A stretch of DNA of 64,000 nucleotides, taken from assembly GCA_040326155.1 (NCBI GenBank), contig JBEQLE010000001.1, forward strand, positions 32,001-96,000, written 5' to 3'. The DNA comes from Leptospirales bacterium (GTDB lineage: Bacteria; Spirochaetota; Leptospiria; Turneriellales; JAOUFE01). Positions 53,530 to 64,000 of this stretch are shown in pieces. The translations under genes were made by a program, and so were the position numbers. How positions within the stretch are numbered: the stretch's first letter is position 1; every line of letters begins with the position of its first letter. Below the pieces are notes generated by a model. The model had not been told where the DNA came from. It did no database searches and saw nothing but the letters and a program-made list of their open reading frames with translations.

Positions 53530-55650
53530 TCAGTCAGTTTTTTGCTCCATTACAAATTTACAAGCGGGATTTTGACAAGTGAGCGTTATTCCGCTTTTTT
53601 TAACTTTTTGTCCCATAATGGATTCGCATTGCGGACAACTCTGCTGCGAGGGTTTGTCGAGCATTGTAAATTCACATCCGCTGGAAGCATAGTTTTCACA
53701 ACCGTAAAACTTACGCCCTTTTTTCGAAGCTTTAGAAACAACATTACCAGCACACAATGGACATTTACCGAGTGGAATACTTTCGGTATATCGACATCCC
53801 CCTGCGAAATTTGCACAGCCTATAAAATAGCCATTTTTTCCAAGCTTTTTTTGCAGGGCATTACCACAGTCAGGACAGTCTCGACCGATGGGTATGCGAA
53901 TAATATGTGACATATCCGGCATACTTTCCCCGGCAGCTTTCAGAACATCCTGAAAGGGAAAGAAAAAATCACCAAGCATTTTTTTCCAGGCAATTGTCCC
54001 CTTGGCGACATCATCCAAAGTCTCTTCCAGGTTTGCTGTAAACTCCAGATCTACAATATCAGCAAAATGGTCTTGCAAAAGACCGCTGACAAGCATACCA
54101 AGCTGGGTGGGTAAAATTTGTCTGCCTTTTCTTTCGATATAAGATCTTTTATCGAGAGTCGCCATAGTCGGAACATACGTTGCAGGACGTCCAATACCTG
54201 ACTCTTCCATTTTACGAATAAGAGAGGCCTCTGTATAACGCGGCGGTGGCTGGGTAAATTTTTGCATTTTTTCAAAAGTGTGAATTTCCAGAGCCAGCCC
54301 CGGTTCAAATTTTGGTATATGCTCTTTTTTATTTTCCCCAGATGGAAAAACAGCGCGATAACCGGGAAAAGTCTGTCTACCTGAAGAGAACCGAAACAGA
54401 TACATTTCATCATTCGATAAAACTTCAATGGTTACCAGTTCATCTACACCCGTAGTCATTTGCGAACCGACAAAACGCTTCCAGATTAAATCGTACAGCT
54501 TGAACTGATCTCGGCTTAAATATTGCGAAATTGAAGCCGGGGTTCGCATTACATCGGTCGGGCGAATTGCTTCGTGAGCGTCCTGGGCCGATTTTTTTGA
54601 CGCATATATATTTGCTTTTTCGGGAAGGTATTCAGACGAAAATTTTTCTTTAATATAACTTCTAGCCATTCCCAGACCGGCTTCTGAAATTCTTGTCGAA
54701 TCTGTTCTCATATAGGTGATTAAACCGGTTGGTCCGCCTTCACCCAGATCGACACCTTCGTATAGACTCTGAGCAACAGACATAGTTTTCTGAGCACGGT
54801 AACCCAGCCGGGTCGATGCGTCTTGTTGCAAACGACTGGTAATATAGGGCGTAGGAGGCTTGCTCTTTCTTTCGGATATTTTTCGAACAGTAGTCGAGAA
54901 TGACTGTTTTAAACAGGTTTCTTCAATATGCTGCGCTGTATCTCCATTGGTGATGTTTACTTTTTCGCCGCCAACCTGAACAAGCTTAAAAATTACGGCT
55001 TTATCTTTTGCCTTAGCCAGGTCGTGCTCAAAAGTACTTTCTACTTCCCAGAATTCAACGGGTTTAAAATCTTTAATCTCATTTTCTCTGACAGTAATAA
55101 TTTTTAAAGCCGCCGACTGAACACGCCCGGCAGAAAACCTTTTAGAGCTAAATTTTTCTTGCAAAATAGGAGAAATACTGTAACCAACCAGACGATCGAG
55201 CAATCTACGAGCCTGCTGAGAATTCACCATCAACATGTCGATTTCTCTAGGATGGCTGATGGCATCTTTTACGGCCTCTTCGGTAATTTCATTAAATTCA
55301 ATTCTTTGAATATTATCGTTCACGGCTGAGAGGGCCCGTTCAAGGTGCCAACTGATCGCTTCACCTTCCCGGTCAGGGTCAGTCGCAAGTAAGACATTTA
55401 CGGAAGATTTTGCAGCTTTTTTCAATTCGGCTAAATCTTTTCCTTTACCGCGTATAGTTATGTATTGCGCTTCAAAATTATTTTCAATATCAATACCCAT
55501 TTTACTTTTAGGCAGGTCAATTAAGTGCCCTTTTGAGGACTCAATTCTATAGTCCGGTCCCAGAAACTTTGCCAGAGAACGAATTTTTGTCGGGGACTCA
55601 ACAACAATTAACGTTTTAGTTTTTTTTGATTTCTTAGTTTTAGTAGCCAT
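53530..55650 (-). CDS. topA: DNA topoisomerase I
   Basis: IVVESPTK, ATDPDREGEAI, SAGRVQS, ITYMRTDS, C-terminal zinc ribbons. Confidence 0.98.
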   Translation of the reverse strand: MATKTKKSKKTKTLIVVESPTKIRSLAKFLGPDYRIESSKGHLIDLPKSKMGIDIENNFEAQYITIRGKGKDLAELKKAAKSSVNVLLATDPDREGEAISWHLERALSAVNDNIQRIEFNEITEEAVKDAISHPREIDMLMVNSQQARRLLDRLVGYSISPILQEKFSSKRFSAGRVQSAALKIITVRENEIKDFKPVEFWEVESTFEHDLAKAKDKAVIFKLVQVGGEKVNITNGDTAQHIEETCLKQSFSTTVRKISERKSKPPTPYITSRLQQDASTRLGYRAQKTMSVAQSLYEGVDLGEGGPTGLITYMRTDSTRISEAGLGMARSYIKEKFSSEYLPEKANIYASKKSAQDAHEAIRPTDVMRTPASISQYLSRDQFKLYDLIWKRFVGSQMTTGVDELVTIEVLSNDEMYLFRFSSGRQTFPGYRAVFPSGENKKEHIPKFEPGLALEIHTFEKMQKFTQPPPRYTEASLIRKMEESGIGRPATYVPTMATLDKRSYIERKGRQILPTQLGMLVSGLLQDHFADIVDLEFTANLEETLDDVAKGTIAWKKMLGDFFFPFQDVLKAAGESMPDMSHIIRIPIGRDCPDCGNALQKKLGKNGYFIGCANFAGGCRYTESIPLGKCPLCAGNVVSKASKKGRKFYGCENYASSGCEFTMLDKPSQQSCPQCESIMGQKVKKSGITLTCQNPACKFVMEQKTD

Positions 55651-55687
55651 AATCTATTTTATACTATCGGACAAAGACGATATTCTT

Positions 55688-56710
55688 TCATTCAAGTTCT
55701 TTCTGATTTAAATAAAAAATCCGAAAATTTAAACTTTCGTCGCCTTTTTTCCAAACCGCCTTTTTATTTTTTTCCAACTCATGAATTTTTTCCATAGCAG
55801 CCTCTTGGACAATTAACCCTTTCTTCGGCGCTTTCGTAGCTATTGCCTGAGCTACTCTCAACCCCTCAAATGATATATCTTTATCTTTGTGTAATATCGC
55901 TCCCGCTTGAATCTCTCTTTCTAGAAATGGATGCGTTCCGGTAAAGTAAACTTTCAATAACCTGTCGAATACTTTTTTTGACAAGTATCCCCTGTAAAAG
56001 TGAGGACCTGCCTCCAGGTATAAAAACATCTTCCGTAGTTTCCGTCCTTCTTTTGTTGAAAACGCATTTTCCGGGTCGTAAGGGTTGCAAACCACATAAA
56101 GTGCAATTAGATCGGAGTTTCCTGTTACGGACCCCAGGTATCGAAAGCCAAAATACAAAAGAAACAAAAACACAACAGCTAAATTTGCATATAGATAATC
56201 ACTGCTTTGCCATATACCGGTATAAAATTTTTTCATTTCGGGCATCGTATATTGAAACTGCCACCGTACTAGATTACTTTCATTTTTTGTGTGGCAAATT
56301 AAACAAGGCTTAGCAGGATGTTCCGTATAGGTAATAAGTTCTGGAGAGAGCTTTTCATAACCGGTTTTTACACTTTCACCGTTTTCCAGTTTATTCGGTA
56401 CAAAACGCGCTTTTGTTTGAATACAATCTTTTGATGCACCCTCATCATCGTTTAACCCGGCACATTGAAACAGAGGTTTCCACACATAAGGCTCGGCTGC
56501 TGAAAGTTTCAAGTTGACCAGCTCTCTTTTTCGAATTTCAAGAGCTCGATAATAGAAAAAACCACTTTTATCGCGTGATTCTTTTTTATAGAGCAGAAAA
56601 ACAACAGCGTTCAGAAGAATAAACACCCCAACCAGAAAAGCCAGAAACGTTTTTGGCCAGAAGGAAGGGTGAAATAACCAATTTTTCCAAACTCTGGTCG
56701 CAGCCCACAC
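55688..56710 (-). CDS. Membrane protein with extracytoplasmic CxxCH motif and degenerate class III cyclase-like C-terminal domain
   Basis: 2 TM; CLICH at 56305-56291; C-terminal IQAGAILHKDKDISFEGLRVAQAIATKAPKKGLIVQE resembles the cyclase core. Confidence 0.6.
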   Translation of the reverse strand: MWAATRVWKNWLFHPSFWPKTFLAFLVGVFILLNAVVFLLYKKESRDKSGFFYYRALEIRKRELVNLKLSAAEPYVWKPLFQCAGLNDDEGASKDCIQTKARFVPNKLENGESVKTGYEKLSPELITYTEHPAKPCLICHTKNESNLVRWQFQYTMPEMKKFYTGIWQSSDYLYANLAVVFLFLLYFGFRYLGSVTGNSDLIALYVVCNPYDPENAFSTKEGRKLRKMFLYLEAGPHFYRGYLSKKVFDRLLKVYFTGTHPFLEREIQAGAILHKDKDISFEGLRVAQAIATKAPKKGLIVQEAAMEKIHELEKNKKAVWKKGDESLNFRIFYLNQKELE

Positions 56711-56713
56711 TAG

Positions 56714-57736
56714 TTATGTTCCTTTCAGAAAAATCTCTAATTCCTTTGCATGGCCATATTTCTGAAGCTTAAGGAGGGTCTTTTTCTCAATCTGGCGAAC
56801 TCGTTCTTTAGATAAACTGAATTCTTTTCCGGCCTGGGTCAACGAAAGTCTTGGTTTATTATTCAATCCAAAACGAAACTCAATAATTGCTTTCTCTGAC
56901 TTGGTAAGTTCTTCGAGTATGGAGTTAATGGCCTCATGCAGGGCAATATTCATCACCTGTGTTTCAGGCGATTCGTATTTATCGTCTTCGATCGTTGACA
57001 TCTGCGTATTTTCAGAGTCGGTTCCAAGAGGCGCATCTAACGATACATAGTCAGCAGAGACTAGTTTCAACCACTTTATTTCGTCTTCAGGAATATCAAT
57101 ACGATCTGCAATCTGAGCAATAGTAGGTTCAACACCCAACTCATGTTCGAGCTCTTTTTGAACCTTCTCAATTCGATTTAAATCGATGGTTCGATTCATG
57201 GGTAGACGTATAATGGACGCTTTTTGATTTATAGCGAGTATAATGGCCTGGCGAATCCACCAGACTGCGTAACTGATAAAATGAAATCCCATATTAGGGT
57301 CAAACCTTTCAGATGCTTTTATTAAACCCATATTTCCTTCGTTAATTAAATCAAGAAGAGAAATACCATATTTCTGGTACTTTTTTGCCACTTGCACCAC
57401 AAAACGCAAGTTTGCAACAATCAAGCGCTCTTTGGCTTTTTCATTACCCGCAATCGCTTGTCTGGCATAAGTATCTTCTTCTTCGCGACTCAATAAGGGT
57501 ATTTTATTAATTTCTTCAAGATACCATTGAATACTGGATTCAGTATAAGGGTGTTTATTTTTTACTGCTTTTTTCCTGGTTTTAGTCGTTTTTTTAGGCT
57601 TTCCAGTATCTTCTTTTTCCTTTATATCTTCTTCAGATACTTCAGACAACCCTTCTACCTTCGAAACAACATCTTTCTTTTTGACTTTTTTAGAGCCGGT
57701 TGTCTCTTTAGTAACATTTTTGCTGCTTTTTTTCAT
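56714..57736 (-). CDS. Sigma-70 family factor, RpoD/RpoS-like, lacking a typical region 1.1
   Basis: YLEEINKIPLLSREEE (1.2), ANLRFVVQVAKKY, HFISYAVWWIRQAI (2.3-2.4), SLDAP, LSKERVRQIE (4.2); Lys-rich N-terminus. Confidence 0.93.
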   Translation of the reverse strand: MKKSSKNVTKETTGSKKVKKKDVVSKVEGLSEVSEEDIKEKEDTGKPKKTTKTRKKAVKNKHPYTESSIQWYLEEINKIPLLSREEEDTYARQAIAGNEKAKERLIVANLRFVVQVAKKYQKYGISLLDLINEGNMGLIKASERFDPNMGFHFISYAVWWIRQAIILAINQKASIIRLPMNRTIDLNRIEKVQKELEHELGVEPTIAQIADRIDIPEDEIKWLKLVSADYVSLDAPLGTDSENTQMSTIEDDKYESPETQVMNIALHEAINSILEELTKSEKAIIEFRFGLNNKPRLSLTQAGKEFSLSKERVRQIEKKTLLKLQKYGHAKELEIFLKGT

Positions 57737-57949
57737 TATATTATACCGGAAACTTGACTATACACAATCCAGAACACCAGTTTCGCCTATGGGCGTATGA
57801 TGTAAAGGTATTCTATCGTATCTGTATTCTATTCTCAATTAGACGAAAATAACGCATAATAACCGTGAATATAAGATAATAAATGGAACACCGGTTTTCC
57901 GTTCCTGCTTTACACCCTGTCTATTTGGCGTAATAAAGTTTCAATAGTA

Positions 57950-59038
57950 ATGCACATGGAAATTATAAATAACAAACCGATCTATGGTATAGGAATTGAA
58001 TCAAGTTGCGACGAAACAGGTATTGCAATTAGCCAAAACGGGAATAAAATTCTTGCCAACCCGGTATACACGCAGATTGACTTTCATGCCCAATACGGGG
58101 GTGTCGTTCCTGAATCGGCCAGCCGTCTGCACCTTGAAAAAATTGCGCCGATGCTCCAGGAGAGTTTTTCTACAGCAGGCATTACACCGGACCAACTCTC
58201 GTATGTAGCAGTTACCGTTCGTCCGGGTCTGGTTGGTTCCCTGCTTGTGGGGTATTACACAGCCCGCGCGCTTGCCGATTTTTACGAAATTCCGCTTATA
58301 CCCATCCATCATCTCGAAGCCCATCTATATGCCATTGAAATTGCTGGAATTCCAGTCCAATACCCCTTTCTGGGTCTGCTTCTTTCAGGCGGTAATTCGG
58401 CAATATACAAAGTCGAGGGGCTCTCCAATATAACTACCATGGGAGACACACTTGACGACGCCGCAGGCGAAGCTCTCGATAAAGCGGCCGCGCTGCTGAA
58501 TCTAAGTTATCCGGGAGGGCCGGTCATTGAAAAACTGGCCCGATCGTTTGCGAACAAAGGTGAAGAAAAATTTGACGTCCTCAGAGAAAAAGGTGGGGTA
58601 AGAAACCTGGCTCGTAACCCTTTGCCAAAAATACTGGCAACCCAACCCTCCGACAAATATGAGTTCTCGTTCAGCGGTATTAAAACAGCCCTTTACTATT
58701 TGCTGGAAAAAAAAGAGAAAACGTATACACCAGAACACCTTGCCTGGGCTTTTCAAGAAAGAGTTTTTGAGATCGTACTGCGAAACGTCACAAATGCCCT
58801 CACCAATAAAAAATTTCCCCGACTGGTCGCCGCCGGCGGCGTGCTTGCCAACCAGACGCTAAAAAAACAACTCGCTGAAGCGGCGCAAAAAACCAACACT
58901 GAATTTATTTCCCCCCCACCCGAACTTTGCACCGACAACGGAGCTATGATCGCTGCGCTCGGTTTTCGCTATTTCCAAAATGGTAATTTTGAAAACCTGA
59001 GCCAGGAAGTGACTTCGTCTAAAAAGTGGGGTGTTTAA
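57950..59038 (+). CDS. tsaD: tRNA threonylcarbamoyltransferase TsaD
   Basis: GIESSCDETG, YGGVVPESASRLH, HHLEAH, TLDDAAGEALDK, FSFSGIKT, CTDNGAMIA. Confidence 0.97.
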   Translation: MHMEIINNKPIYGIGIESSCDETGIAISQNGNKILANPVYTQIDFHAQYGGVVPESASRLHLEKIAPMLQESFSTAGITPDQLSYVAVTVRPGLVGSLLVGYYTARALADFYEIPLIPIHHLEAHLYAIEIAGIPVQYPFLGLLLSGGNSAIYKVEGLSNITTMGDTLDDAAGEALDKAAALLNLSYPGGPVIEKLARSFANKGEEKFDVLREKGGVRNLARNPLPKILATQPSDKYEFSFSGIKTALYYLLEKKEKTYTPEHLAWAFQERVFEIVLRNVTNALTNKKFPRLVAAGGVLANQTLKKQLAEAAQKTNTEFISPPPELCTDNGAMIAALGFRYFQNGNFENLSQEVTSSKKWGV

Positions 59039-59049
59039 TTGACTGGACC

Positions 59050-59898
59050 TCATGAACCCGCCAACGCATCAATGAGTTTGGCGCAACCACCGTTTTTTAT
59101 ATATTCCGTATGCTCATCGATTGTCTTAAAGTTTTTTCCGGTTATTTCAGAACATAGCATTTCATAGTCGGTCACGCCCTGAAATGTTTTTAATATACGA
59201 TCTGCTTCAGGGTTACGAAACCCTGATTTTATTTTGTTTTGTTCTTTCAGTGTTTTTAGAGAGCGCATCCATATTGCAGCGCTGAGAGCGCCACAGGCAT
59301 TACCGTTTAAACCAAGGCCTCCGGCAAAACCGGCAACCATAACTATTTCCTCATCGCTGGCGCCCATTTTTCTGGCAACTTCAGAAGCGCAACTTATACA
59401 GGTTTTGGGTAAATTTGACTTTTGCGTAGACAACCCTTTCGTCGCCGCCTCGATGGCTTCGGGGGCCCACTTCTCTGACAATTTATAACATCCCAGAGCT
59501 TTTCCGGTCACTAAATATTTTGCTATACTCAAAGGATTTTTAAAATCGGCTTCGGTTATATCGGAGCACTCAACGGTTTTGGTCCTTTTAGAAAAAGATT
59601 CAACTATGTGTTGGGTCGCGGTTAAGGCCAACCCGATTGCCGAGTTAAGACTATCGCTTCTTCGAAAGGCTTCGGCTCCTGCGGCTAAGGTAGCTCCCCA
59701 TAACATACCGCATTGGTACCCTTGCCTCAATATTCCACCCGCTAAATGGTCTGAAGCGCTTTCTGCTTGTTCCTGAACATGCCCAAATTCCCGATTTAAT
59801 ATGTGGAAAAATGCGTGAGAGCAAGTTCCTTTTTTCAGAAATATTTTCTTTGCGTCATTTTTTATTCTAATTTTATTTGTTTCCATTTTTTCCCTCAT
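59050..59898 (-). CDS. C-GCAxxG-C-C family putative redox protein with two tandem domains
   Basis: Two repeats: TCSHA..LAGG..QCGMLWG..ECSDIT and SCASE..FAGG..ACGALSA..LCSEITG. Confidence 0.85.
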   Translation of the reverse strand: MREKMETNKIRIKNDAKKIFLKKGTCSHAFFHILNREFGHVQEQAESASDHLAGGILRQGYQCGMLWGATLAAGAEAFRRSDSLNSAIGLALTATQHIVESFSKRTKTVECSDITEADFKNPLSIAKYLVTGKALGCYKLSEKWAPEAIEAATKGLSTQKSNLPKTCISCASEVARKMGASDEEIVMVAGFAGGLGLNGNACGALSAAIWMRSLKTLKEQNKIKSGFRNPEADRILKTFQGVTDYEMLCSEITGKNFKTIDEHTEYIKNGGCAKLIDALAGS

Positions 59899-59916
59899 TC
59901 ATCAATCATCAATCAT

Positions 59917-60927
59917 TTAATCAGTCACTGTAATTACGACATGGCCTTTTTTCTTTCCCGCTTCGGCGTACGCGTGAGCTTCGGCAGTTTGCTCCAATGT
60001 AAAACATTTGTCAATAACGGTCTTAATCTTTCCCTGTTCCACCAGCTCTTTAATATACACCAGATCTTCTTGCTTATAGCTAGACATCGCACAAATAACT
60101 TTCTTACTACCAAAAAACTTTGTTCGTAACATTTGAAATATCGGTTTTGTTTTAAAACTTGCCAGCAAATATATTCCATTTTTCTTTAAAGATTTGTTAC
60201 AAGCCGAAAAGGAGCTCTTGCCCAGCACATCGAGAATGATATCATAGGTCTGCCCGTTGGAAGTAAAATCTTCTTTCGTGTAATCTACGACATAATCTGC
60301 TCCGAGCGATTTTATATAGTCTAACCTTGCAGTGCTGCACACCCCGGTAACTTCAGCTCCAAAAGATTTAGCCAACTGGAGAGCGTAACTTCCAATACTT
60401 CCGGAAGCTCCATTAATTAAAATTTTAGAATTTTCCCATTCTATATTTTTAGAATCGAGTTTTCTAAGTACATTCAGGGCCGTTAATGCCCCATAGGGGA
60501 CCGTACATGCCTCTTCAAAAGTCATATTACCCGGCTTTAAAGCCACCAGACCGTCAGCCTTCATGCATATGTATTCTGCATTGGCGCCAAACTTCGCTTC
60601 GGGGTATGCAAAAACGAGATCGCCTTCTTTAAAATTTTTGACATCTTTGCCTACGGCTTTCACCTGCCCTGCCAATTCACTTCCGAGAATATTTATTTTG
60701 GGTTTCCAGACACCAAACACAAGGCGCACCATAGGCAACAAAAATAGAGGCATGTTAAATTGACTGGAGGTTATATTTCCAAAATTCCGTGCGAGCATAT
60801 CGCCATAATTGACAGGCGTAGCATGCACCTTAATTAAAACTTCATTATCTTTCGGAACCGGTTGTTCCACCTCTTCAAGCTTTAGAACCTCCGGGCCTCC
60901 GTATTCTGTGTATACAATTGCTTTCAT
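59917..60927 (-). CDS. NAD(P)-dependent MDR-family oxidoreductase (zinc-independent)
   Basis: MKAIVYTEYGGPEVL, GANAEY, LINGASGSIGSYALQLAK, LGADYVVDY. Confidence 0.93.
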   Translation of the reverse strand: MKAIVYTEYGGPEVLKLEEVEQPVPKDNEVLIKVHATPVNYGDMLARNFGNITSSQFNMPLFLLPMVRLVFGVWKPKINILGSELAGQVKAVGKDVKNFKEGDLVFAYPEAKFGANAEYICMKADGLVALKPGNMTFEEACTVPYGALTALNVLRKLDSKNIEWENSKILINGASGSIGSYALQLAKSFGAEVTGVCSTARLDYIKSLGADYVVDYTKEDFTSNGQTYDIILDVLGKSSFSACNKSLKKNGIYLLASFKTKPIFQMLRTKFFGSKKVICAMSSYKQEDLVYIKELVEQGKIKTVIDKCFTLEQTAEAHAYAEAGKKKGHVVITVTD

Positions 60928-60961
60928 TTTATACTCCTTAAGTTACAAAATTTTTAAAACT

Positions 60962-61189
60962 TCAATTGACTTTCTCTTCTAAATTATAAGAGAAAACCTC
61001 TTCCAACGGTATGCCAAACACATGAGAAATGCGAAAGGCTAAATCAAGAGAGGGCGAATATTTTCCTTTTTCGATGGCTACAATTGTTTGCCGTGACACT
61101 CCTGCATTTTCCGCCAGTAGTTGCTGGGTCATTTCATCATGGTTAAAACGTAATTTTCGAATGTTATTACTGACAAGATATTTACTCAT
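60962..61189 (-). CDS. XRE-family HTH regulator
   Basis: MTQQLLAENAGVSRQTIVAIEKGKYSPSLDLAFRI. Confidence 0.95.
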   Translation of the reverse strand: MSKYLVSNNIRKLRFNHDEMTQQLLAENAGVSRQTIVAIEKGKYSPSLDLAFRISHVFGIPLEEVFSYNLEEKVN

Positions 61190-61190
61190 C

Positions 61191-61649
61191 TTAGACTCCT
61201 CTACGATACAAATAGAGTTTTATAATTTCACCCAGTCCATTGCCAAAAAACATAGAGTACATAATGAACAAGAAAACCATAAAAGGCGCAATTCCCAGAG
61301 CGAGTGCCCCCATGGAGCCGACAAATCCGACACCAAAGGCTATAAAAGAGACCTGCATTCCTTTAAGTTCAATCAGTTTGTCGCGCTCATCCGTAACCGA
61401 TTGTACTTTTTCTTTGGTTATTATCGCATAAAAAATATTGAATAGAATGGAAACGGCGATGGTAACTAAGATACTGGCGCAAATCAATACAAAAATAGAT
61501 TTTCCCACAAGGGCGGCCGCACCGGCTCCATCGAAACGCCCTTCCTGGTACATATTAAACATGTACATTCCATAGAGTCCAAATACTATTATAGAGCTGA
61601 TTAAATTTGCGATTGTATTTCTTTCTTGATATGACATTCCGTCCTCCAT
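61191..61649 (-). CDS. Membrane protein partnered with the XRE regulator (DUF2178-like)
   Basis: 4 TM, DERDKLIELK motif, ends YRRGV; stop 1 nt before the XRE ATG. Confidence 0.8.
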   Translation of the reverse strand: MEDGMSYQERNTIANLISSIIVFGLYGMYMFNMYQEGRFDGAGAAALVGKSIFVLICASILVTIAVSILFNIFYAIITKEKVQSVTDERDKLIELKGMQVSFIAFGVGFVGSMGALALGIAPFMVFLFIMYSMFFGNGLGEIIKLYLYRRGV

Positions 61650-61731
61650 TTGTCTGGTATTCTTTACTTTTAGTCTAGTTTGACAGACAGAATGTAATAT
61701 AAATTATACTATGTGTCAAGTTTTCTTTACA
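61650..61731 (-). promoter_or_regulatory. Sigma-70 promoter with repeated operator-like motifs
   Basis: Minus-strand TTGACA (61719-61714)-17 bp-TACATT (61696-61691); plus-strand motifs GTCTGGTATTCTTTAC, GTAATATAAATTATAC, GTCAAGTTTTCTTTAC. Confidence 0.65.
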
Positions 61732-61935
61732 TTTGTATTAAAAAACGAAAACATACTTTCTTTTCAAGCCCCTTCTTGCCTTCCTTATAAAAACTCTTTT
61801 CTTACTGATTTTAAGAAATTCAATTTGGAAAATCAGGGGCCTGTATTTCTATAATAAAAAACTTCATTTACACACAATAGCGTTAAACAATACTTTCCAT
61901 CGTCGGGAAGTTGCATTTTCTGGCGTTAACTTAAT

Positions 61936-62220
61936 ATGGTTTTTATAATATCAATAATAACATCTGCCGTTTTAACTTTGTTCTTTGGTTTAAGAGGCCA
62001 GTTCGCAAAAAAAGAGACACAAGTCTATCTGGTAAGAAGTTATATTCTTGGAATAATCTTAATTCCTATCGTTGGCGGCCTTCAAGGCAGTTTTCATTCA
62101 GACGCTTTCAGCATACCCTGGTGGTTTTTTGGGTTAATCAACTTTTTCGCAATAAGTCTAATGGCTGTTATCGCAATCGTAATTTTGAAAATCTTTAGTT
62201 CCGCGCAAAAAGAACAATAG
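61936..62220 (+). CDS. Small hypothetical membrane protein (3 TM), cassette-like
   Basis: 94 aa, AT-rich; its stop coincides with the start of structured repeat copy B. Confidence 0.65.
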   Translation: MVFIISIITSAVLTLFFGLRGQFAKKETQVYLVRSYILGIILIPIVGGLQGSFHSDAFSIPWWFFGLINFFAISLMAVIAIVILKIFSSAQKEQ

Positions 62221-62449
62221 CCGACACTCTTCCATTCTCGTTTAAATTATTTATCCACTAAAAACGTGATTTCTGGCGGCTTATTTCCTGTTTTGCCCGC
62301 TCCATATCGTATGGGGTGGCGGAGAATCTTTTTTAGTATACTAAAAAAATTCGCAGACAGGGGAAAGAGGAAAGTCGCGCAGAGTAAAGTATTTTTGTTT
62401 GCAAAACAAAAATGCGCATCCCCGCTTTCCCCATTTATGCTTGTTGGTT
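62219..62449 (-). repeat. Long structured repeat, copy B
   Basis: Homologous to 24070-24283 (AGCCGACA, ATATCGTATGGGGTGGCG, TCGCAG.CAGGGGAAAGA, GCTTT.CCCATT, GTTGGTT). Confidence 0.7.
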
Positions 62450-62655
62450 TTCATCATCGTTTATCGCAAAAAGAGAAAGTAACTGGATCAAATTTCAGAT
62501 CTTTAAAAAAATCAGGCCGACGACGTCCCCGGTAGAATCGGGTTGTTAAGGTATTTTATTCCACATGTTCGTACTGCGGAATTCGACCGCGCATCGAACC
62601 GTGAAAATAGTCGGGGTACATTTCGAAACTAACTTATATAATTTTTATAAATAAC

Positions 62656-62683
62656 TTGACACACTTCATGAGTGTGGTATATT
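62656..62683 (+). promoter_or_regulatory. Sigma-70 promoter of the sheath operon with a palindrome in the spacer
   Basis: TTGACA (62656)-16 bp-TATATT (62678) with extended -10 TG; CACACT-TCATG-AGTGTG at 62660-62676. Confidence 0.75.
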
Positions 62684-62749
62684 CGTTTTAGAAAATATTT
62701 ACTTATCATATTCTCCCACCTATAAAATTCGCTTTTAAGGAAGGGTTAT

Positions 62750-63781
62750 ATGCCAGAGATTATATTACCGGGAACATATGTTTCCGTTCGCGATGAGGGT
62801 TTGATAAGCGCCGGTGGTGTGATATCAGGGAATATCGGGGTGGTCGGGACAGCTGCTTCAGGTACTGTTAACAAAGTAGAAATACTGGGTTCTCTTACGG
62901 AAGCCGGAGAAGTTTTTGGGGCCAAAAAAAGTGGTCTCAATTTACTTGATACATTAGAATTGATTTATGGAAACGGCGGCCGCACGGTTTATGCGATACG
63001 CGCCAACAGTGATACTCCGGAAGATTACAAGGCGGCACTTGCGCCGCTCGAAAAAGAGATCGTTAACATCGTTCTTTTGGCGGGTCAAGATTCCTCCCAG
63101 GTTGAGATGGTCGCCGCGCTACAGGGGCACATTGCCTCTACTTCACAGATTAAAAGAGAACGCATTGGTTTGATCGGATGCGCTACCGCAGACGATGTCG
63201 AAACTATAGCGGCTCACCCGCTCAACAGTGAACGCGTGATTTTTGCCGGCCCCGGCATCAAGATCGGGGGAGTTGATTATTCCGGCGCATATACGGCGGC
63301 GGCCCTGGCCGGTCTGCTTTCTTCTTTACCCGTACAGGCAAGCCCGACCAACAAAACGTTAAACGTACAAGGACTGACTGAAGAATTTACTTCATCAGAA
63401 TTAGAGAAGCTCGTTATGAGCCGGGTTCTAGCCGTAGAAAAACGTAAGGGCTATCGTGTAGTCAAAGGGATTACCACTGCAACCAATAGCGCATGGCATC
63501 AGATCACAACTCGGCGTATTATCGACTATGCAACTTACGGAGTACGCTCTTGTTGCGACCCTTATATTGGAAAACTGAATAACGACCGCGTGCGTAGCGC
63601 AATGAAAGCGACCATTGATTCCTTCTTAACGGGGATGGCAGCTGACGAAGCTTTAGTCAGCTATGAATTGGAAGTTGGCGCCACCAGAGCGCAGGAAATT
63701 GCCGGTGAGTGTATCGTCACTATGACACTACGTCCGACATTCAGTATTGATTTCATCAAAGTAACCATGTACCTCGGGTGA
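62750..63781 (+). CDS. Contractile tail sheath protein (short, 343 aa)
   Basis: N-terminal LPGTYV, GVVGTAASG, SPTNK, VVKGITT, ITTRRIIDY, YIGKLN, LRPTFSIDFIKVT sheath motifs; AAGGAAGG RBS. Confidence 0.9.
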   Translation: MPEIILPGTYVSVRDEGLISAGGVISGNIGVVGTAASGTVNKVEILGSLTEAGEVFGAKKSGLNLLDTLELIYGNGGRTVYAIRANSDTPEDYKAALAPLEKEIVNIVLLAGQDSSQVEMVAALQGHIASTSQIKRERIGLIGCATADDVETIAAHPLNSERVIFAGPGIKIGGVDYSGAYTAAALAGLLSSLPVQASPTNKTLNVQGLTEEFTSSELEKLVMSRVLAVEKRKGYRVVKGITTATNSAWHQITTRRIIDYATYGVRSCCDPYIGKLNNDRVRSAMKATIDSFLTGMAADEALVSYELEVGATRAQEIAGECIVTMTLRPTFSIDFIKVTMYLG

Positions 63782-63805
63782 TGGAAAAGGGATAAGGAGT
63801 AACAT

Positions 63806-64000
63806 ATGCCAAACAATAATGTTTTTCGAGGGTCGGACGCAACACTTGTGCTGGCCGTGGATGACAGCGCAACGGTAGAGGGAGGCCTTGCCGATGGCTT
63901 AATAAGCGAATATGATTTTTCCAATATCGTCGGGCGCTTGCAAGATGTAAGAGTGAAAGTACTCAATGAGGTGCGTCCTTACCATGAGATTGGAAAAAGA
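63806..64000 (+). CDS. Probable tail tube protein (runs off the window; absent from the ORF track)
   Basis: AAGGAG RBS then MPNNNVFRGSDATLVLAVDD...VGRLQDVRVKVLNEVRPYHEIGKR; directly after the sheath gene, beta-rich tube-like pattern. Confidence 0.7.
   Translation, partial: MPNNNVFRGSDATLVLAVDDSATVEGGLADGLISEYDFSNIVGRLQDVRVKVLNEVRPYHEIGKR

Follow-up and report, generated by a model that had tools for sequence, protein, structure and literature searches.

The window analysed here is a stretch of 64,000 nucleotides from the genome assembly of a Leptospirales bacterium (4.26 Mb in 171 contigs, 94.7% complete) and corresponds to positions 32001-96000 of the 145,960-bp contig C83, a contig coordinate being equal to the window coordinate plus 32000. 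A first reading of the letters (hereafter the sequence-only reading) had flagged the final 1.3 kb of this window as the start of a stand-alone contractile tail locus, and we extended the analysis through the rest of C83. The flagged genes turned out to be the first two of a tail cluster of 20 open reading frames (ORFs), g01 to g20, that covers 27,006 bp (C83:94621-121626) and whose members we assigned to families by Pfam, PHROG, and NCBIfam searches. We scanned one genome per GTDB species by pattern and obtained 18 related loci, which by record title belong to cyanobacteria (13 loci, from Microcystis, Nostoc, Leptolyngbya, and others), Bacteroidota (four loci), and a gammaproteobacterium (one locus).

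The first gene, g01 (window 62750-63781, forward strand), codes for a compact tail sheath of 343 amino acids (aa) and follows a ribosome-binding site read from the sequence (AAGGAAGGG, window 62737-62745, forward strand) that ends 4 bases 5' of the ATG. The protein matched the Pfam families Phage_sheath_1 (46.9 bits) and Phage_sheath_1C (56.4 bits), both above threshold, and PHROG 279 'tail sheath' with an E value of 2e-44. Its AlphaFold model (mean predicted local distance difference test, pLDDT, 74.7) retrieved solved sheaths of phages, tailocins, and contractile injection systems (CIS) by Foldseek with E values of 1e-15 to 1e-10. These family and fold matches bear out the 343-aa sheath named by the sequence-only reading. 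g01 also matched DUF2586 (28.2 bits, cut-off 26.4), which we take to be the Mu gpL family, and some homologues are named 'gpL-like' in the sources. At least 1995 clusters of homologues (at 90% identity) were found at E ≤ 1e-5. The sheaths fell into length classes of 340-356, 450-490, and 540-566 aa, the longer ones carrying additional residues between positions 88 and 89 of g01. The earlier description of a compact sheath was justified, since among the 120 best homologues listed the 340-356 aa class had only eight members, g01 included, the rest measuring 450-566 aa.

The second gene, g02 (forward strand), had been proposed as a probable tube gene from window position 63806. The ORF is real: it codes for 169 aa, its first 65 codons occupying 63806-64000 at the end of the window and the whole gene C83:95806-96315. 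We called it the tail tube because of its position directly after the sheath and its conservation, the product being 66-76% identical to its counterpart directly downstream of the sheath in 17 of the 18 related loci. Its sole Pfam family match was weak (Phage_tube_2, 20 bits, below the cut-off of 27), and the tube profile retrieved nothing among solved structures up to E 10.

The genes downstream of the tube make up the rest of a phage-type tail set, and the leading 16 genes of the cluster, all intact, follow one another closely over 23 kb. The product of g03 (124 aa, C83:96312-96686), without family and 46-55% identical in 17 loci, is encoded in the position of a tail chaperone. Two genes are candidates for the ruler: g04 (394 aa, C83:96834-98018), a low-complexity protein rich in Glu, Ser, Gln, and Asn that varies in length and sequence among the relatives, and g07 (1059 aa, C83:99507-102686), rich in Leu, Glu, and Ala and with a weak match to a PHROG tail protein. 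Between them, g05 (250 aa, C83:98059-98811) is hub-associated, with matches to DNA_circ_N (24.6 bits, cut-off 21) and to PHROG 184 'baseplate hub' (2e-4), and g06 (229 aa, C83:98814-99503), without family, lies among the baseplate genes. They are followed by g08 (318 aa, C83:102683-103639) in the hub position, by the spike g09 (256 aa, C83:103641-104411), of the gpV-type OB-fold (Phage_base_V 35.6 bits, TIGR01644 phage_P2_V), by g10 (140 aa, C83:104430-104852), a Sheath_initiator/GPW_gp25 protein, and by g11 (388 aa, C83:104854-106020), a Baseplate_J protein (57.5 bits; PHROG 6 at 8e-46). Two further genes conserved in relatives, g12 (439 aa, C83:106066-107385) and g13 (157 aa, C83:107404-107877, PHROG 5417), would code for wedge or fibre-adaptor proteins. 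In the Mu-type tail module, a gene for a DNA_circ_N protein, here g05, precedes those for the hub and the spike; g08 and g12, both conserved in relatives and without any Pfam, PHROG, or NCBIfam family, occupy the positions of the Mu-type hub (gpD/gp44) and wedge (gp48/gpI), respectively.

The remaining genes include those for the fibres. The first fibre, g14 (1026 aa, C83:107943-111023), carries Peptidase_S74 and Peptidase_G2 domains, and the second, g16 (987 aa, C83:115070-118033), has N- and C-terminal modules as in g14 and a different middle part. A calcineurin-like metallophosphoesterase, g15 (1213 aa, C83:111033-114674), is encoded between them. Thereafter come g17 (179 aa, C83:118075-118614) and g19 (183 aa, C83:120138-120689), both on the opposite strand and without family, which enclose g18 (251 aa, C83:119380-120135), a truncated third copy of the fibre N-terminus. 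A second copy of the 5' part of g16, together with about 200 nt of its upstream sequence, lies 4.3 kb further downstream at C83:119180-120135 (93% identity over 300 nt) and ends in g18; this duplicated fibre start looks like the scar of a fibre exchange. The last gene, g20 (172 aa, C83:121059-121577), codes for a protein with a probable tail-terminator fold. Thus, the baseplate, spike, gp25, and baseplate J genes that the sequence-only reading had proposed to look for downstream all follow, together with fibres. Elsewhere in the assembly, an 853-aa protein (C141:5719-8280, locus L033) combines YadA-head repeats with a Peptidase_G2 autocleavage domain and has its C-terminal module in common with both tail fibres (40% identity); an integrase gene lies 4 kb from it.

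The relatives L027 (blastp E 1e-12) and L028 (2e-11) also have a g20 homologue at the 3' end of their clusters. We aligned its model, built from a 4-sequence alignment (pLDDT 62.5, core 75-83), to 48,161 chains, and 22 of the first 30 rows belonged to neck or tail-terminator proteins from phages, tailocins, or a gene transfer agent. The Z scores were 7.3 for lambda gpU, 6.9 for the A-1(L) gp7 terminator, 6.7 for T5 p142, 6.3 for the diffocin collar, 6.1 for the Mu terminator, and 6.0 for the pyocin R2 collar, compared with 4.7 and 4.5 for the Streptomyces and Anabaena CIS caps. Foldseek found nothing at E ≤ 0.001, and a word-based homologue search returned only g20 itself. The model comparison thus makes g20 a probable tail terminator.

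Neither the 20 ORFs of the cluster nor the C83 flanks to the contig end matched any capsid, portal, terminase, integrase, replication, or lysis family, so that the head genes of a rearranged prophage, which the sequence-only reading had considered, do not lie downstream on this contig. Genome-wide six-frame searches of the 94.7% complete assembly were likewise negative for Terminase_6N, TerL_ATPase, HK97-type Phage_capsid, and Phage_portal, the portal negative resting on Phage_portal because the control itself was silent in the Portal_Mu search. Upstream, as had been claimed, the ORFs at window 53530-62220 include no head gene; they comprise topA and tsaD together with genes for a sigma-70 factor, a redox protein, a dehydrogenase, membrane proteins, and an XRE regulator. 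There is no tRNA at the borders of the unit and no integrase within it.

The same head-less layout recurs in the related loci. Gene order is kept, with identities of 57-74% for the sheath, 66-76% for the tube, 46-55% for g03, 40-49% for g05, 30-33% for g08, and 43-49% for g09. In the 10 kb upstream of the sheath, all eight loci examined contained only cell genes or unassigned ORFs: among 59 ORFs of at least 90 aa, 49 had a Pfam family, one of these matches being a transposase domain, and none was a phage head gene. All three loci that we extended downstream continued with gp25, J, g12, g13, and fibre genes and then ended after one or two small genes. The notion of a stand-alone, 'domesticated' tail put forward by the sequence-only reading thus gained support on both sides of the cluster. 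Among the relatives, the Bacteroidales locus L015, on a 140-kb contig, is a solid case. Known phages carry only distant sheaths of this kind: against the INPHARED phages, the match spanning the protein was 28.5% identical over 98% coverage, partial matches reaching 30%, and of 26 IMG/VR loci only two were close, both on contigs that start at the sheath, the other 24 being at most 32% identical.

We thus read the locus as a complete head-less contractile-tail cluster that most likely makes R-type tailocin-like particles, to which we assign a probability of about 65%. Because the tail set is complete without head genes and belongs to a family with the same layout, it would most likely be a tail-shaped weapon and not a virus. 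A competing view is that of an inert remnant, i.e., the tail half of a prophage that lost its head and replication genes and is now decaying. The truncated fibre g18 with its duplicated upstream region, the two opposite-strand ORFs of the 3' part, the lack of lysis and regulatory genes, and the location in a variable island beside a type I restriction-modification system are consistent with decay. We nevertheless consider this improbable, given that the 16 leading genes are intact and tightly packed, that the head-less layout recurs upstream (8/8) and downstream (3/3) in relatives of different phyla, that tube and sheath remain 57-76% identical across phyla, and that no phage with such a tail was present in the two phage collections searched.

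Several observations weigh against the tailocin-like interpretation or qualify parts of it. The unit contains no recognisable holin, endolysin, or spanin gene, although characterised R-type tailocins carry a lysis cassette, as described in PMC4684702. No regulator is so far tied to the promoter by evidence, the ruler may be either g04 or g07, and the 3' part of the cluster looks rearranged, with the truncated fibre g18 and the opposite-strand genes g17 and g19. The terminator call for g20 relies on a 4-sequence model and on Z scores of 6-7.4, values that a common fold can produce. That the particle kills or injects we infer from the homology of its parts, since no member of the family has been studied. 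Finally, the apparent taxonomic spread is probably due in part to mis-binning: the locus L009, from a 'Crocinitomicaceae' metagenome-assembled genome (MAG, 4.5 kb), is probably mis-binned because its upstream sequence is of the Microcystis type, nearly identical to that of Microcystis loci, and L012, from a 'Gammaproteobacteria' MAG (4.2 kb), is equally short.

The sequence-only reading had left the choice between an extracellular contractile injection system (eCIS) and a tailocin-like system. The tailocin-like part stood, in view of the phage-type tail set; an assignment to the Afp/PVC/MAC-type eCIS did not, since the hallmarks of these systems are absent from the locus. A cluster of this type would also begin with sheath and tube and lack head genes, and the terminator-like gene at the 3' end would fit as well, afp16 sitting at the 3' end of its own cluster. 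The sheath fold gives no discrimination between classes because all sheath classes were matched alike, the model resembling phage sheaths and the CIS sheaths of AFP, PVC, AlgoCIS, Anabaena, and Streptomyces to a similar degree (template modelling scores of 0.53-0.64). By contrast, the sheath profile favoured phage and pyocin sheaths (phi812, 5e-9; 9ezm, 3e-8; pyocin R2 sheath PA0622, 3e-6) over the eCIS sheaths Pvc4 (0.21) and Afp3 (0.59). Among the locus ORFs, we found no Pvc16_N/DUF4255, AAA ATPase, LysM, PAAR, or eCIS_core domain, no VgrG extension, and no T4 gp19-type tube (PF06841), g02 having only its sub-threshold match to Phage_tube_2; LysM, PAAR, DUF4255, and AAA ATPase were among the genes that the sequence-only reading had suggested might follow. 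In the whole genome, Pvc16_N (PF14065) occurs only at C48:556-1044, and the g20 profile is unrelated to that protein (hhalign probability 0.1%). The DNA_circ_N protein and the gpV-type spike are phage-type baseplate parts. An Afp/PVC/MAC-type identity is therefore very improbable for this locus.

A separate eCIS of the Afp/PVC type is apparent in the same assembly. The contig C48 (C48:1-4293, locus L032) contains a sheath of 494 aa, a gp19-type tube (PF06841, 2.6e-44), the Pvc16_N protein (3e-33), an ATPase fragment, and a CarboxypepD_reg protein, and C145 (locus L034) contains three eCIS_core-domain proteins, one fused to Amidase_2, and a 1720-aa one. C48 measures only 4.3 kb, and its place in this genome is provisional. 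The assembly yielded no second Baseplate_J.

The metallophosphoesterase g15 raises the alternative of a payload-delivering contractile injection system, from a lineage separate from Afp/PVC, that would deliver enzymes or toxins and would not act by puncture alone. The protein was grouped with calcineurin-like phosphoesterases by an Atlas feature search (score 0.94, 16 hits, 193 shared features) and matched PHROG 1649 metallo-phosphoesterase weakly (E 0.009); no meaningful match to a solved structure was obtained, and what are presumably the usual metal-binding motifs were picked out by eye. Its residues 26-128 match residues 24-125 of g06 (28% identity, pairwise E 4e-8), and this N-terminal piece of about 100 aa common to both suggests that g15 docks where the baseplate-encoded g06 docks. 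The low guanine-plus-cytosine (GC) content of g15 (36.8%, versus 43.8% for the locus) is as expected of swapped-in cargo, and one distant protein is a fusion of a PhoD phosphatase with a g06-like piece. At cluster ends of relatives, we also found a caspase-family Peptidase_C14 gene after the terminator-like gene (L027:9924-10733) and a ribosome-inactivating-protein-family gene (L029:10924-11595, reverse strand). These toxin-like neighbours may however be unrelated island cargo, and a phosphoesterase encoded between fibre genes could equally be a tail enzyme that degrades surface polymers. Moreover, g06 has only three full-length homologues among 1.84 billion representatives, so that there is no polymorphic-toxin pattern, and the locus has no PAAR, VgrG extension, or eCIS_core domain. 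Payload delivery is thus possible but, in our opinion, rather unlikely.

Among known systems, the R-type syringacin or Rp4 tailocin of Pseudomonas syringae, which derives from the tail of a Mu-like (SfV-type) phage as described in PMC4684702, offers a close comparison. Both are chromosomal, head-less, phage-type contractile-tail clusters. The present locus carries the Mu-type marker DNA_circ_N, and its genes run from sheath and tube through chaperone, ruler and hub region to the V-type spike, gp25, J, and fibre. The Pseudomonas clusters differ by their cassette of holin, endolysin, and spanin and by their regulators, none of which was found here. The present locus differs in addition by having the sheath first and the terminator-like gene last, by a sheath that shares no more than about 30% identity with the phage sheaths searched, and by its hosts, i.e., cyanobacteria, Bacteroidota, and a spirochaete-like genome. 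The R2 pyocin of Pseudomonas aeruginosa (PDB 3j9q, 6u5f) and the diffocin of Clostridioides difficile (6gkw, 8v3t) resemble the locus by their compact sheaths of about 350-390 aa, by the matches of the sheath model to CD1363 and PA0622, and by those of the g20 model to their collars (Z 6.0-6.3), whereas sequence similarity exists at profile level only. These two belong to P2-like or clostridial phage lineages and their clusters include lysis and regulatory genes; we know of no DNA_circ_N protein in either cluster. Afp, PVC, and related eCIS (PDB 6rao, 6j0n, 9qgl) and the thylakoid-anchored CIS of Anabaena (7b5h) are also head-less sheath-tube-baseplate machines encoded by cell genomes, and some have a compact sheath, that of Afp2 measuring 354 aa. 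They differ by the Pvc16_N cap, AAA ATPase, gp19-type tube, VgrG with PAAR, and eCIS_core effectors that the locus lacks, and the Anabaena sheath All3325 matched the locus sheath by sequence with an E value of only 0.38.

Expression of the cluster could start from a sigma-70-type promoter ahead of the sheath (TTGACA-16 nt-TATATT, with an extended -10 TG; window 62656-62683, forward strand). As the sequence-only reading had stated, it is near consensus, matching 11 of 12 positions, and it was the best of nine promoter-like sites in 61600-64000, a region for which shuffles gave 4.4 +/- 2.1 sites. The palindrome CACACT-TCATG-AGTGTG reported in the promoter spacer is indeed present (window 62660-62676) and occurs only once in the genome. 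It is a possible, unproven operator; alone it is no evidence of one, because palindromes of this size are common by chance and it is not conserved. At least one palindrome with 6-bp arms was present in the 300 nt upstream of the sheath in 12 of 15 relatives, all with different sequences, so that the claim of a repressor-controlled system was not borne out. In the Microcystis-type loci L006, L007, L010, and L031, another palindrome, TGCTTGGCA-CGAC-TGCCAAGCA, precedes the sheath start by about 89 nt; its arms measure up to 9 bp, and some copies are degenerate.

The sole regulator candidate near the promoter is an XRE-family helix-turn-helix (HTH) protein of 75 aa (window 60962-61189, reverse strand) that matched PHROG families of transcriptional regulators and repressors (best E 5e-10), its link to the promoter being putative. 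The gene lies within a 40-kb island and is absent from the syntenic interval of the same-family genome G003. In the same island, 530 bp upstream of the sheath, a 94-aa protein (window 61936-62220, forward strand) showed three hydrophobic segments in a hydropathy scan and no Pfam or PHROG family; this membrane protein could serve as a holin-like lead for release. An Rfam search of 36 kb gave no family at the gathering score and, near the promoter, a chance-level match only. A search of public sequencing runs with window 60900-64000 listed no run and no RNA holder.

The tail cluster is bracketed exactly by direct repeats of 131 bp that are identical at 125 of 131 positions. The left copy (window 62491-62620) ends 36 nt before the -35 hexamer, and the right copy (C83:121627-121757) starts 50 nt after the g20 stop. 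The repeat core of about 85 nt occurs at 12 places in the genome and in none of 20 relatives; other copies lie on C102, C100, C154, C53, C86, C96, C84, and C106. Of all copies, the two that flank the tail cluster are the longest and most alike. These flanks could be either attachment-site-like junctions or the recombination product of dispersed repeats. We also considered the dispersed repeat as a structured RNA and rejected this, as only one of 14 predicted pairs was compensatory in six copies, with an unfavourable covariation term; it had no Rfam match. Directly after the right repeat lies a type I restriction-modification system (C83:121877-130464), with HigB-like toxin and HTH-Peptidase_M78 genes between hsdR and hsdS/hsdM, and then ordinary cell genes to the contig end.

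In G003, topA, the sigma factor gene, and tsaD are followed after about 1 kb by an LTD-domain gene and then by pst and mur genes. Here, 40 kb separate tsaD from the LTD-domain gene (C83:91040-130990), the island in between being missing from G003. Both flanks of the island have homologues in 12 of 12 relatives and are adjacent in G003, which ruled out an assembly chimera. The locus was found in none of three other genomes of the family, one of which had a weak partial match (31% over residues 5-85), and of 400 other genomes of the phylum one had a match, likewise weak and partial (34% over residues 92-246). From these genomic comparisons, namely the rarity of the locus in family and phylum, the GC shift (43.8% in the tail locus versus 39.6% in the genome), the absence of the island from G003, the conserved flanks, and the bracketing repeats, the tail locus is shown not to be native to the lineage and to have been acquired horizontally as a unit. 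A bolder and tentative view, which we consider doubtful, is that of an unrecognised contractile injection lineage with the sheath first, the terminator last, a Mu-type baseplate, and no lysis genes. It would form a cassette of about 27 kb, bounded by direct repeats, that moves between phyla (cyanobacteria, Bacteroidota, and spirochaete-like bacteria) with exchangeable enzymes, here g15 docked via the domain in common with g06.

If the locus makes tailocin-like particles, one strong promoter would drive the operon, and further promoters may precede the duplicated fibre genes. Particles would assemble in the cytoplasm on a baseplate made of g05 and g08-g13, the length of the tube being set by g04 or g07 acting as the ruler, the sheath polymerising around the tube, and g20 capping it. 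An exit route is not apparent because lysis genes are not present. The fibres would bind other cells, the two of them possibly representing alternative receptor specificities on a common attachment module, and contraction of the sheath would drive tube and spike through the target envelope; g15 may travel with the particle as an enzymatic component.

This family appears to be undescribed, as do its architecture and its hosts; head-less contractile tails as a kind, including Mu-type ones, are known (PMC4684702). A listing-level search of the literature on tailocins and tail sheaths in cyanobacteria, Microcystis, Leptospira, and Spirochaetes returned no description of the family, and the eCIS review PMC10598620 contains no occurrence of 'Spirochaet-' or 'Leptospira'. 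A literature search joining contractile injection systems with the DNA circulation protein found nothing.

Proteobacteria and clostridia are known to use head-less contractile tails as weapons. The present locus connects a spirochaete-like genome with a very large, unstudied family that is prominent in Microcystis and Nostoc, and this family would also show that tail cassettes cross phylum boundaries. If C48 is correctly binned, a phage-type cluster and an Afp/PVC-type eCIS could be compared within one assembly. In bloom-forming cyanobacteria, such genes have so far been taken as signs of viral infection, as in PMC5647855. If the particles are active, strain-against-strain killing would become testable in these bloom-forming cyanobacteria.

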